This document shows, one piece after another, positions 1 through 4,548 of a stretch of DNA of 22,234 nt (positions are counted from its first letter, which is position 1; the number at the start of each line of letters is the position of its first letter). The translations under genes and the position numbers were made by a program. Under the pieces are notes generated by a model that searched no databases, had not been told where the DNA came from, and saw nothing but the letters and a program-made list of their open reading frames with translations. The stretch lies in the IMG/VR virus record IMGVR_UViG_2718218227_000001; one strand, given 5' to 3'. This DNA comes from a virus. Taxonomy: Duplodnaviria; Heunggongvirae; Uroviricota; Caudoviricetes.

Positions 1-1206
1 ATGGGATATAAAGTAAAGAAATTCATCATGAGTAGTGGAGAGCGAGGATGCCTGATCCTTGATAAAAAAAGTAATCTACCAACTTACTATCAAAATCTAT
101 TTCTTACTACAGACATAAGAAATAGAGGCGCAACGGCCTCAACGATGGAAATAGTTGCAACTAACTTACTAATTTTCAGTAATTTCTTGGATGGTAGGGG
201 AATTGATATAATTGAGAGAGTTGAACTTAAAAAATATCTCAGCGTTGCAGAAATAGATGATCTGGTAAGATATGCGAAACAAAGATTCGACAGACAAAAA
301 ATCATAAATATAAAATCGACAAATTATAGGTTTATTGCGAAGAGAACCTTTAGTTATAGAATACACGTTTTTTCACGCTACCTTAAGTGGTTATGTGGAT
401 TAGTTCATTCGTCAAAGGGGATTCATGCAAAGTATGAAGTAGACGTATTTATTGAAAGTATCAGAGCACATATTCCAAGAAACAGTTCATTGAATATGAA
501 TGAAATATCTGAAAAATCGTTGAATGAAGAAGAGATCAAAGTGCTTTTCCGTCTATTGGAAATTGGCGGGATTGAAAACCCTTTCCATAAGGAAGTACAG
601 GTCAGGAACAGACTAATATTTACCTTGCTCTTAAATTTAGGTTTAAGGGCTGGAGAGTTGCTCAATCTTAAAATAGATGATTTTGATCTCAGAGACAACA
701 CTTTAAGTGTAGTCAGAAGACATGATTCAAAAGAAGATGGAAGATCTTATCAACCATTAGTAAAGACTGGAGAAAGGGTTATTCCGTTATCTGATGAGTT
801 AGCCCGTGAAATTTTTGATTACATAAGCAATAGCAGAGAAAAAATGACAAAAAGGAAAAAGCATAATTTCTTATTTGTGGCTCATTGCACCGGAAAAAAC
901 GCAGGAGAACCCTTAAGCATTTCAGCTTATGAGAAGGTGATATCAACACTGAAACGAGCAAGTCCAGAGCTATATAATCTTTCAGGCCATAGGTTAAGGC
1001 ACTCTTGGAATTATATGTATTCTAAAGGAATAGAAGGTGCTGAATTAGAATATAATAGAAGGAAAGATTTAAGGAATTATTTAATGGGTTGGTCAAAGGA
1101 GTCAATAATGTGTGATAGATACAACTATAAATATATATCGCAACAAGAGAAGGATGTCGTCCTAAAGGTCTATAAATCAGTAAGTAAAATAATTAGTGGA
1201 GTTTAG
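1..1206 (+). CDS. Tyrosine recombinase (phage-integrase family), first of three tandem recombinase genes
   Basis: 401-aa ORF starting at window position 1. Translation shows the tyrosine-recombinase catalytic pattern: box I Arg (LGLRAGELLNL), Lys in KTGERVIPL, HxxR (GHRLRHSW), W (GWSKES) and the tyrosine region (DRYNYKY). The upstream boundary of the element is outside the window. Confidence 0.8.
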   Translation: MGYKVKKFIMSSGERGCLILDKKSNLPTYYQNLFLTTDIRNRGATASTMEIVATNLLIFSNFLDGRGIDIIERVELKKYLSVAEIDDLVRYAKQRFDRQKIINIKSTNYRFIAKRTFSYRIHVFSRYLKWLCGLVHSSKGIHAKYEVDVFIESIRAHIPRNSSLNMNEISEKSLNEEEIKVLFRLLEIGGIENPFHKEVQVRNRLIFTLLLNLGLRAGELLNLKIDDFDLRDNTLSVVRRHDSKEDGRSYQPLVKTGERVIPLSDELAREIFDYISNSREKMTKRKKHNFLFVAHCTGKNAGEPLSISAYEKVISTLKRASPELYNLSGHRLRHSWNYMYSKGIEGAELEYNRRKDLRNYLMGWSKESIMCDRYNYKYISQQEKDVVLKVYKSVSKIISGV

Positions 1207-1207
1207 T

Positions 1208-2521: not shown

Positions 2522-4149
2522 ACAATATATTTATTTTTGAACCAAGCAATAAAAACAACCCTCTCGATAATGTTATTAAGTTTATCGAGTTTTGTAAGAG
2601 TACTATTTCTAATAATAATTTAACAACTTCATGGGAAAGCAATAAATGGAAAGGTTTATATAGGTTTACTAAGTTTAACTCAAAAAACAACCTAAACAGC
2701 AAGGAGTGCTTAGATGATAGCTTTATTAATTTTGCTAAAGCATATATGTTGCATGTGCATTCATTCAATAAATCTAAGACGAAACACTCAACATTATCAA
2801 TGTTGAAGATTGTCGAATTCGTTTTACTTAAAATCAATATGGAAGCTAATGTAAACTATTGCAACAATTCAATCTATGATGAATGCATAAGGATAGCCTC
2901 TGAAAAGTATTCTAAAGCACATGCATTTGCTATTGGGAAAGAACTTGAGAAATTGAGTTCATTTTTAAATGATAATAGGATGACTAACTCATTTTATTTA
3001 TTTTGGGTAAATCCAATTAGGTATAGGATTACTCAGTCTTGGACTGGTTATGATTCTTCACTGGAAGGCCATTCTAGATTGCCTGATATCAAATCAGTTA
3101 TTGCGATTGCTGAGATTTTTTCAAAGCGGGATGAACAATTATCGTCAAGAGATATATTTACTACATCTGTGCTTGCTTTACTTATGTGTGCACCGAGTAG
3201 GATATCGGAAATTTTAGCTTTGCCAGCGGATTGTGAAATCACAGAATGTGATGGAAAGGGCATTCAAAGATACGGTTTAAGATTTTTTTCAGCAAAAGGG
3301 TATGAAGGCAATATAAAATGGATTCCAACTTTAATGATACCTGTAGCTAAAAAGGCTATTAGCAGATTAAAAGAATTATCAAGTCAAGCGAGGTTATTGG
3401 CTGCTGAAATTCAAAAGAATTACTCTAATTCAACGAAGGGAACCCTTAAAGAAAATATACCTCCTGATCTCTTTTGGTATGATAGAGAGAAGAAAATCAA
3501 ATATTCTAATGCGCTTTGCTTGTTAACTGAAGGACAGTTAAATCAAAATAAAAAGGAAATGTCAGATAAATTATTCAGACCTACAACGAATTTTTTTAAA
3601 ACTGATATCATTGATTCTGATTATATAAAAGGGTATTTTAATGTTTTTAAAAGACATGGTTATATAAATGAAGATGGTAGCCCATATTTGCTAAGAACAC
3701 ATCAACTAAGGCATCTTCTCAACACATTTGCTCAAATAAATGGTATGGATGAATTTAGTATTGCTCGCTGGTCTGGACGTAAGCTTATTTCTCAAAATGT
3801 TTCTTATGACCACAGATCGCATCTTCAAATGTCTAAAGCAATAAGAGAAAAAAAGTTATCAGTATGTGTTAATGAGCACAGAATAAAGGATATTCCAGTA
3901 GTGGATCTTAATGAGTTTGACTCACTTAGTAGTGGTGCAGTACTTGTATCAAAACATGGCTACTGCAAGCACTCATATGCGTTTAAGCCGTGTGATAATT
4001 ATCCAATTAAGAACTCTGGTTTAGATAACGAAACGATTTCAAATATCCACGATAAAATTTTAAAAAGAACACTGTATGATAAAAATGATGGGAACATAAA
4101 TGCTGATAAATGGTATGAATTCCATAAAAAAATAAAAAAAGGAGAATAA
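2518..4149 (+). CDS. Tyrosine recombinase, third of trio
   Basis: ATGA start/stop overlap with the upstream gene (2518-2521). Motifs: Arg in APSRISEILAL, HxxR in THQLRHLLNT, W in ARWSGRK, Tyr in NVSYDHRSH. 543 aa with a C-terminal extension. Confidence 0.8.
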   Translation: MNNIFIFEPSNKNNPLDNVIKFIEFCKSTISNNNLTTSWESNKWKGLYRFTKFNSKNNLNSKECLDDSFINFAKAYMLHVHSFNKSKTKHSTLSMLKIVEFVLLKINMEANVNYCNNSIYDECIRIASEKYSKAHAFAIGKELEKLSSFLNDNRMTNSFYLFWVNPIRYRITQSWTGYDSSLEGHSRLPDIKSVIAIAEIFSKRDEQLSSRDIFTTSVLALLMCAPSRISEILALPADCEITECDGKGIQRYGLRFFSAKGYEGNIKWIPTLMIPVAKKAISRLKELSSQARLLAAEIQKNYSNSTKGTLKENIPPDLFWYDREKKIKYSNALCLLTEGQLNQNKKEMSDKLFRPTTNFFKTDIIDSDYIKGYFNVFKRHGYINEDGSPYLLRTHQLRHLLNTFAQINGMDEFSIARWSGRKLISQNVSYDHRSHLQMSKAIREKKLSVCVNEHRIKDIPVVDLNEFDSLSSGAVLVSKHGYCKHSYAFKPCDNYPIKNSGLDNETISNIHDKILKRTLYDKNDGNINADKWYEFHKKIKKGE

Positions 4150-4548
4150 ATGGCTAAGCATATAAATGGTTATCATGAGAAGAAGATTGTAGATGTTATT
4201 AACACATGGTCTATAGATGAAAAACTAACCTGGAATGCTTTGTGCGATAGGTTAGTCAGGGTTATTGGGAAAAGACCATCAAGACAATCCTTAAGTAGTC
4301 ATGTAAGGATTGCGGAAAGCTTCAATGTGAAAAAAACCACAATCAAATCTGGTGTAATACACACTGTAAAACCTGCTAATTTAAAAGTGGCTTCTCAACG
4401 AATTAAAAGACTTGAAGCAGAAAATGAAGCTTTGAAGGCATTAAATGAACGCTATTTAGAGCAGTTCAAAGTATGGCTTTATAATGCTCACCTTAAACAA
4501 ATAACGATTGAAGAACTTAATAATCCGTTACCTGCAAAATACCTTTAA
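4150..4548 (+). CDS. Small protein co-transcribed with the recombinase trio; possible DNA-binding / directionality factor with C-terminal coiled coil
   Basis: Starts 1 nt after the stop of the third recombinase (taaATG). 132 aa; the C-terminal half has a heptad-like pattern (RIKRLEAENEALKALNERYLEQF). Function is inferred from position only. Confidence 0.5.
   Translation: MAKHINGYHEKKIVDVINTWSIDEKLTWNALCDRLVRVIGKRPSRQSLSSHVRIAESFNVKKTTIKSGVIHTVKPANLKVASQRIKRLEAENEALKALNERYLEQFKVWLYNAHLKQITIEELNNPLPAKYL

Follow-up and report, generated by a model that had tools for sequence, protein, structure and literature searches.

A Four-Gene Tyrosine Recombinase Operon, Probably of the GInt Type, in an Island Remnant beside the Sp17 Prophage of Escherichia coli O157:H7

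The Question Raised by the Locus

Which kind of mobile element is represented by three tandem tyrosine recombinase genes and a small fourth gene, found at the start of a 22,234-nucleotide viral record (IMG/VR IMGVR_UViG_2718218227_000001; this whole stretch is hereafter called the window) whose sequence is identical to chromosomes of Escherichia coli O157:H7? [quoted passage not shown] A preliminary description of the window had proposed a GInt, RIT, or Tn554-like element without choosing between them. The comparisons presented here allow us to state with considerable confidence that the four open reading frames (ORF1-ORF4, Table 1) constitute an intact ginABCD operon of the GInt type, and not an RIT, Tn554, SE, or GMT element; the choice was made on the basis of the homology of the first three products to GinA-GinC, the listing of the locus in a published survey (Idola et al. 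2023, Mob DNA 14:7), and the linkage of distant relatives to ssb. It should be stressed that the GInt classification of this operon has already been published. As the locus is present in that survey, the finding is correct but not new, and the O157:H7 copy, being already counted, adds little to the GInt catalogue. Only the nested position of the operon after alpA, its cassette-like exchange, and a fully catalytic GinC may be new, judging from the sequences compared; the first and the last of these are undescribed, as far as could be found.

Assignment of the Operon to the GInt Family

None of the four gin genes of the Pseudomonas stutzeri DSM 4166 GInt is dispensable (Bardaji et al. 2017, Sci Rep 7:46254), and the partial GinA, GinB, and GinC sequences of this strain, printed in Fig. 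S1 of that study, were used as the prototype in BLASTP comparisons. Alignment to GInt recombinases had been suggested in the preliminary description, and it revealed that ORF1-ORF3 are homologous to and collinear with GinA, GinB, and GinC. The identity was 32% over 228 amino acids (aa) for ORF1 and GinA (E 1e-28) and 25% over 227 aa for ORF2 and GinB (E 5e-12), while ORF3 matched GinC in an N-terminal segment (E 1e-5) and in the catalytic segment (E 8e-6).

The second line of evidence is a published result, which is taken over here. Idola et al. (2023) recovered ginC-ginD blocks by PSI-BLAST from the prototype, and the synteny blocks given in their Additional file 10 include ECH74115_RS19505/RS19500 and ECs_3510/ECs_3509 (strain Sakai). 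The former pair corresponds to WP_001059531.1/WP_001052051.1, i.e., to ORF3 and ORF4 of this locus, and the O157:H7 replicon was scored SE = 0 in the same survey. In the literature, GInts were reported from 7.5% of the replicons of Escherichia and 39.5% of those of Pectobacterium; the module analyzed here is carried by 351 of 5426 E. coli genomes and its Pectobacterium homologs are 74% identical, which is of the same order.

That the operon belongs to another multi-recombinase family (SE, Tn554, RIT, or GMT), or consists of rearranged ordinary phage integrase genes, is most improbable and already largely refuted. Tandem tyrosine recombinases accompanied by a small gene broadly resemble all four families, the large catalytic third protein is reminiscent of SE IntB and Tn554 TnpB, and weak GmtY matches were found in NCBIfam. 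However, SE is contradicted by the survey score and by ORF2, which is not a Tfp of more than 550 aa devoid of catalytic residues; Tn554 by the presence of three recombinases instead of two; and RIT by the fourth gene of the operon and by the repeat search, in which no long inverted repeat flanking the module was found. With a cut-off of 340 bits, GmtY scored only 22.3 and 20.9, and no other Gmt-named family was present among the NCBIfam matches of ORF1-ORF4. Fragments of phage integrase genes are difficult to reconcile with the lack of any match to the module in 50,697 phage records, and a rearranged fragment with four genes that are intact and under purifying selection.

Operon Layout and the First Two Recombinases

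The four genes, all on the same strand, are tightly packed in the list of open reading frames. ORF2 and ORF3 share an ATGA (2518-2521), and the first base of ORF4 directly follows the ORF3 stop, as had been described before. Of the two start/stop overlaps claimed earlier, the one between ORF2 and ORF3 stands, whereas the ORF1 stop (1204-1206) is merely adjacent to the RefSeq start of ORF2 (1208); an overlap arises only with an alternative GTG start at 1196, which gives an ORF2 of 1196-2521. The AT-richness of the module was confirmed: the G+C content amounts to 0.29-0.37 over positions 1-6500 versus 0.45-0.58 in the phage-derived part of the window. The ratio of nonsynonymous to synonymous substitution rates (dN/dS), estimated in six pairwise comparisons, was 0.15-0.39 across ORF1-ORF4, and the operon is therefore maintained by purifying selection. 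In a subset of O157:H7 genomes (hits H54-H59, e.g., NZ_CP066748.1) the match to the operon covers 4562 instead of 4548 bases at 99.7% identity; the 14 extra bases imply an indel within the coding region, and no gene was flagged as a pseudogene.

The three consecutive tyrosine recombinase genes of the preliminary description were recovered by two different routes. Profile searches with PF00589 detected ORF1 (2.4e-18) and ORF2 (2.9e-11) but not ORF3, which is recognized by its invariant catalytic residues; on these grounds all three are recombinase-fold proteins. The recombinase motifs of ORF1 are conserved across 47 loci (dN/dS 0.22-0.36). ORF2 (dN/dS 0.15-0.34) also matches the NCBIfam family NF041502 at 1.8e-95, slightly under the family cut-off. 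It retains Arg-I (TGRRP), Arg-II, His-III (LDH), and the tyrosine, with arginine at the His-II position (RRFRYT). This unusual motif, already pointed out as non-canonical, is real: BLASTP pairs HRFRHTLG of GinB with RRFRYTLG of ORF2, and motifs of the RRFRYT type are kept even in distant, non-enterobacterial relatives, with variation only at the His-II position. Judged from these alignments, RRFRYT is an old, conserved family variant of the GinB HRFRHT and not a sign of local decay.

The GinC Homolog and Its Catalytic Residues

ORF3 yielded no match in Pfam or NCBIfam, and no recombinase was matched by its family profile among solved structures. Nevertheless, an alignment of 22 diverse homologs showed that R228, K260, H395, R398, H399, W418, and Y430 are invariant in this family. 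Moreover, Arg-I, the hairpin lysine, HQxRH, WSGR, and YxH are retained by the GinC homologs of all lineages examined, the classical ssb-targeting ones among them. In published descriptions, GinC is said to be devoid of a catalytic motif or tyrosine and to miss the first arginine, while the printed fragment of the P. stutzeri GinC (Bardaji et al. 2017, supplement) displays HAFRH and VYNH. The full catalytic set predicted for the ORF3 family is thus in disagreement with the published statements. Furthermore, a Cys/His cluster (G-Y-C-x-H-x-Y...P-C) is conserved in the C-terminal part of ORF3, at residues ~473-492, and longer homologs add C-x-N-C, which suggests a metal-binding extension of a kind not known from ordinary tyrosine recombinases.

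The GinD Homolog

Each of the 46 ORF4 homologs adjoins a ginC homolog. In their alignment the N-terminal part is conserved, helical, and helix-turn-helix-like by sequence pattern, and the C-terminal region is heptad-like; in the AlphaFold2 model of ORF4 (predicted local distance difference test, pLDDT, 83.3) a long C-terminal helix spans residues 78-115. A Pfam search of ORF4 gave no match and a Foldseek comparison of the model with the PDB returned nothing under E = 1. The features of GinD, i.e., small size, lack of a known domain, and a C-terminal helix-loop-helix or coiled coil, are matched by ORF4, for which we infer a probable role as a recombination accessory or directionality factor.

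An Island Remnant beside the Sp17 Prophage

In strain EC4115, an AT-rich spacer of 322 nucleotides (nt) separates the operon from an AlpA-family gene, with a DUF6387 gene and then ypjA lying further upstream. On the downstream side come ORF5, a Pro-Glu repeat gene, a BamE-domain lipoprotein gene, and an IS30 fragment, beyond which there are debris of the lambdoid prophage Sp17, type III effector genes, and ssrA (Table 1). The homology between the O157:H7 island (locus L001) and the island at thrW (L002) ends at L001 27241, exactly at the IS30 fragment, and in other E. coli the same block is found in phage-free islands at thrW, leuX, and proL. Hence, a truncated mobilizable island harbors the operon, and not the prophage. 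The preliminary description had placed the module within a lambdoid prophage, which has to be corrected: it belongs to a separate island remnant, with the IS30 fragment in between. A lambdoid prophage integration module was ruled out on the same grounds and by the phage search mentioned above. The O157:H7 island at ssrA/ypjA has lost its relaxase, cargo, and integrase to the IS30-associated truncation, and the operon was probably left stranded in the remnant with its genes intact.

Table 1. Positions of the gin operon and of neighboring features in the window.
Feature	Position	Strand	Description
ORF1, ginA homolog	1-1206	+	401 aa; tyrosine recombinase with Arg-I (GLRAGE), HRLRH, W, Y
ORF2, ginB homolog	1208-2521 (from RefSeq ATG)	+	437 aa; tyrosine recombinase
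ORF3, ginC homolog	2518-4149	+	543 aa; large tyrosine-recombinase-fold protein; RefSeq label 'DNA-binding protein'
ORF4, ginD homolog	4150-4548	+	132 aa
Spacer after ORF4	4549-4645	.	Right-hand cassette breakpoint (~4589-4604) and conserved promoter/operator-like region of ORF5
ORF5, hypothetical protein	4646-5059	+	Host island backbone, outside the gin cassette; conserved by the relaxase module even without gin (L007)
Pro-Glu repeat protein gene	5455-6741	+	Common to the thrW island (L002); context or possibly cargo
BamE-domain lipoprotein gene	6889-7191	-	PF04355 at 9.2e-07; last island gene before the truncation
IS30 transposase fragment	7242-7982	-	From annotation; island cut-off and start of the Sp17 lambdoid-prophage remnant

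Within the Pro-Glu repeat gene, a perfect hexamer array, (GCCAGA) x 28.7, occupies positions 6474-6645 and specifies a long run of Pro-Glu repeats. Its copy number differs between strains, as a 6800-base query of this region matched 6757 to 6943 bases, depending on the O157:H7 genome. The BamE-domain gene, carried by the island ~17 kb from the chromosomal bamE, is a second gene of this kind, and in another record it is assigned to the SEN1984 family; other genera and the thrW island have it as well. The remaining part of the window (7242-22234) is the Sp17 prophage remnant adjoining ssrA. It is a mosaic that contains, besides the IS30 fragment, NinG, antiterminator, and holin genes (lambdoid late regulation and lysis), IS66 and IS1203 copies, tail-fibre fragments, the type III effector genes espW and espM2, and DUF1076 (NleG-like) genes.

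Related Loci across Enterobacterales and Beyond

For the comparative analysis, 44 loci from other species were gathered with the ORF3 family. The order DUF6387-AlpA-ORF1-ORF2-ORF3-ORF4-ORF5-...-relaxase was found in nearly all enterobacterial loci, with gin proteins of 97% to ~30% identity, and the alpA-ginABCD-ORF5 synteny was observed in ~40 loci. Measured from alpA, the gin operon starts at a distance of 322 nt in all enterobacterial loci; in the outgroups it starts 52-109 nt behind ssb. Besides defence genes, the islands at thrW, leuX, and proL contain a P4-type integrase and a MobA/VirD2 relaxase that is paired with a NikA-like protein. Two configurations of the islands were distinguished, which have one circular gene order in common and differ in the placement of the integrase and the tRNA gene. 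A P4-type integrase adjoining DUF6387 in L042 and L047 was considered as a second integration mode and rejected: the two are separated by a tRNA-like 3' fragment, in keeping with tandem islands.

Outside Enterobacterales, the gin operon of Allohahella follows ssb in a uvrA-ssb locus (both genes confirmed by Pfam), and in Halothiobacillus the gene sizes and order match. Moreover, the E. coli IncF plasmid pEQ011 (L052, NC_023315.1) contains, at 5526-17645, a classical GInt located directly after the plasmid ssb and carrying avs4 and an AbiGi-family gene, both directed against phages. The 3' end of ssb is the most often reported GInt target, and the most distant relatives of the operon are ordinary GInts. 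Homologs were encountered on 63 plasmids, of which E. coli accounts for 31. In Pectobacterium versatile (L024, ~3670-7530), about 170 nt comprising the alpA end and the spacer are duplicated and flank a 3.5-kb insert with insertion sequence remnants, immediately ahead of the gin operon. Possibly, a second element had entered the same site in tandem and has since decayed.

Cassette Exchange between Island Backbones

The comparison of the islands revealed that the gin genes and the surrounding backbone have different histories. Gin cassettes of 93-96% identity are found in backbones that are only 65-83% identical. Reciprocally, in L050 the DUF6387/AlpA region and ORF5 are 86.6% and 84.7% identical to O157:H7 at the nucleotide level (ORF5 was also scored as 88% identical), yet ORF1-ORF4 display only 32-48% protein identity. 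The breakpoints of the L050 type coincide with the alpA stop on one side and lie ~40 nt behind the ORF4 stop on the other, and homology with the backbones bearing diverged cassettes (L050, L035, L036, and L024) resumes at L001 24589-24604 (window ~4589-4604). Furthermore, ORF5 and the relaxase module occur without the gin operon in L007, and a DUF6387-AlpA...relaxase backbone without gin is present in L006. From these mosaic combinations and gin-free backbones it follows that the exchangeable unit consists of the spacer and the four genes, ~4.9 kb in total. A discrete 5.3-kb element, corresponding to the 93-96% identity block (window -279 to 5064), was also considered and dropped, because its right edge turned out to be only an indel affecting two genes of the backbone, of which ORF5 is also a part.

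Spacers and the Search for Element Ends

The earlier suggestion to extend the window upstream and to look for the end of the element was only partly rewarded: the spacer, alpA, DUF6387, and ypjA became visible, but of an end or a target duplication only weak AT-rich repeats were seen. The upstream spacer carries repeated GTAAAG/CTTTAC motifs and a 20-bp perfect palindrome, TTTATTTGACGTCAAATAAA (L001 19857-19876, window -144 to -125), which reads TTTCTTTCACGTGAAAGAAA in L015, L021, and L023, where both arms are changed and the palindrome is preserved. It may be a regulator-binding or a recombinase-binding site. A promoter scan of this spacer gave fewer sites than shuffled sequence. On the other side, the inverted repeats TTGTCAGGACGACAA and TGCAAGGATGCA, located just before ORF5 (window ~4605-4640), are conserved in all island backbones irrespective of the preceding gin cassette, and look like putative operators of this backbone gene.

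In GInts, attL and attR are imperfect direct repeats of 10-17 nt that flank the element. Searches for terminal direct or inverted repeats gave short AT-rich candidates only, which were not reproducible between lineages. The best of them is an imperfect pair found in the O157 and proL types, with CCTGAAATAAAAT located at the stop of alpA and CCTTTAATAAAAT at that of ginD; it was not reproduced in other lineages. Apparent distant repeat copies in L015, L050, and L001 showed no extension on alignment and were rejected, and a copy of the alpA-end repeat upstream of the NikA-like gene (L002, L004, and L008) is most simply explained by the translation start of that gene (ribosome-binding site plus start codon). 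It had also been proposed to define the junctions by comparison with E. coli lacking the module; this did not succeed, as flank-only queries for both backbone types found no joined flanks, i.e., no empty site, in the 5426 E. coli genomes.

Readings of the Element

Several observations weigh against the assignment to GInt and should be set beside the evidence given above. The link between ORF4 and GinD comes from the published PSI-BLAST survey and the shared architecture only; published GinC is said to lack catalytic residues, all of which are present in ORF3; the operon lies inside an island with its own integrase and not at the outer island edge by a host gene, as in the described GInts; and no attL/attR pair, empty site, or circular junction was identified.

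For the extent of the GInt in the enterobacterial islands, three explanations were compared. It is possible, albeit somewhat unlikely, that the upstream spacer and ginABCD alone (~4.9 kb, window -322 to ~4589) form a cargo-less cassette, which occupies the fixed slot between alpA and ORF5, moves or is swapped between backbones, and uses the relaxase of the island to pass from cell to cell. The diverged ORF1-ORF4 in the near-O157 backbone of L050, with its breakpoints at the alpA stop and shortly after the ginD stop, the near-identical cassettes in dissimilar backbones, and the gin-free backbones of L007 and L006 all argue for it, as do the imperfect repeat CCTGAAATAAAAT/CCTTTAATAAAAT and GTAAA-type motifs at both borders of other cassette types. 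However, alpA and ORF5 are not directly joined in any of the E. coli genomes searched, the short repeat is AT-rich and confined to some lineages, homologous recombination in the conserved flanks could equally give the exchange, and every described GInt has cargo downstream of ginD. An equally probable explanation is a classical GInt with large cargo, which would begin just behind alpA, comprise ORF5, the relaxase module, and the defence genes, and terminate in an AT-rich right end far downstream (deleted in O157), with the P4-type integrase, DUF6387, and alpA forming a separate small target island. The family-typical arrangement ssb|ginABCD|cargo in L028, L030, and pEQ011 (Bardaji 2017) and GInts with defence systems at several E. 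coli hotspots (Hochhauser et al. 2023) are consistent with it, and the left boundary of the high-identity blocks is sharp and constant while the right one is variable. Against it stand the gin-free relaxase backbones (L006 and L007), the conservation of ORF5 where the gin genes are replaced, and the failure of the candidate distant repeats of L015 and L050 on alignment.

Less probable still, and in our opinion unlikely, is domestication of the gin operon as an accessory serving its host island, e.g., as a second integration route or in multimer resolution or module reshuffling. Within one island family the operon keeps strictly the same position even between deeply diverged members, purifying selection acts on all four genes, and the two island configurations have the same circular gene order with a differently placed integrase/att module. 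Nevertheless, the repeat searches identified no recombination sites, the operon is missing from some islands of this family, and there is no experimental precedent for such a role. We put forward, with considerable reserve, that the enterobacterial alpA-linked GInts could be a distinct variant, in which a cargo-less ginABCD occupies a fixed alpA-ORF5 slot in tRNA/tmRNA-integrating mobilizable islands, is exchanged between backbones, and depends on a relaxase for transfer, and in which GinC would be a third active recombinase and not a dead DNA-binding subunit, because every catalytic residue is kept clade-wide, also in the ssb-targeting members.

Proposed Mechanism and Significance

By analogy with the Pseudomonas experiments (Bardaji et al. 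2017), the three tyrosine-recombinase-fold proteins and the small helical protein would act together. The Gin proteins would recombine the two borders of the element, left and right, into a circle, which would then be inserted at one preferred target. In the enterobacterial lineage, the host is a tRNA/tmRNA-integrated mobilizable island composed of a P4-type integrase, DUF6387, AlpA, ginABCD, ORF5, a MobA-type relaxase, and defence cargo. Homology, synteny, cassette exchange, gene structure, folds, catalytic residues, and purifying selection are established by the sequences, whereas the recombination activity of this operon, the role of ORF4, and the placement of the element ends are inferred. 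GInts carry virulence, resistance, and anti-phage genes, and their recombination chemistry and cell-to-cell route are barely understood. If the nested slot, the unit-wise swapping, and the catalytic GinC hold, they bear on how the work is shared among the three recombinases and on GInt transfer; the use of an island relaxase, if true, would explain the spread of the supposedly non-mobilizable GInts. In O157:H7 itself, the element is probably a stranded remnant without an obvious virulence effect.

Comparison with Known Systems

The operon resembles the described GInts in its four-gene order and gene-by-gene homology to the tested P. stutzeri proteins, in the small fourth protein with a long C-terminal helix, in its AT-rich DNA, and in distant relatives that sit after ssb with defence or resistance cargo. 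It differs from them in following alpA inside a mobilizable island with its own P4-type integrase and relaxase, whereas in described GInts the operon constitutes the outer 5' end beside a chromosomal gene. Moreover, no cargo can be confidently assigned to it, whereas in GInts the cargo behind ginD is followed by a short AT-rich 3' end; its GinC homolog has the complete catalytic set, including the first arginine reported as missing; and its flanking repeats and its excision are putative.

The SE elements (Idola et al. 2023), also found in Gammaproteobacteria, are similar in having a four-gene operon at one element end, with one ordinary and one large catalytic tyrosine recombinase and a small coiled-coil protein. 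However, their Tfp exceeds 550 aa and has no catalytic motif, whereas ORF2 has 437 aa and keeps Arg, Arg, His, and Tyr, and the published PSI-BLAST clustering groups this locus with GInt and not with SE. Tn554 of Staphylococcus and Enterococcus also combines an ordinary and a large tyrosine recombinase with an accessory protein of ~125 aa and inserts site-specifically, but it contains only two recombinases, its hosts are Firmicutes, and no profile match to it was detected for this operon. The RIT elements, which reportedly consist of three recombinase genes without a fourth gene and are bounded by long inverted repeats, share with it three adjacent, overlapping tyrosine recombinase genes; they differ in that the fourth gene is conserved in all loci analyzed here, and a long terminal inverted repeat was not found. 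Finally, the CP4-57-like islands, located at ssrA or tRNA genes and defined by AlpA and a P4-type integrase, correspond to the surrounding island in its integrase, AlpA, MobA/VirD2 relaxase with a NikA-like partner, and defence cargo. Some of their members are without gin, and they are the host or vehicle of the gin operon, not an explanation of it.

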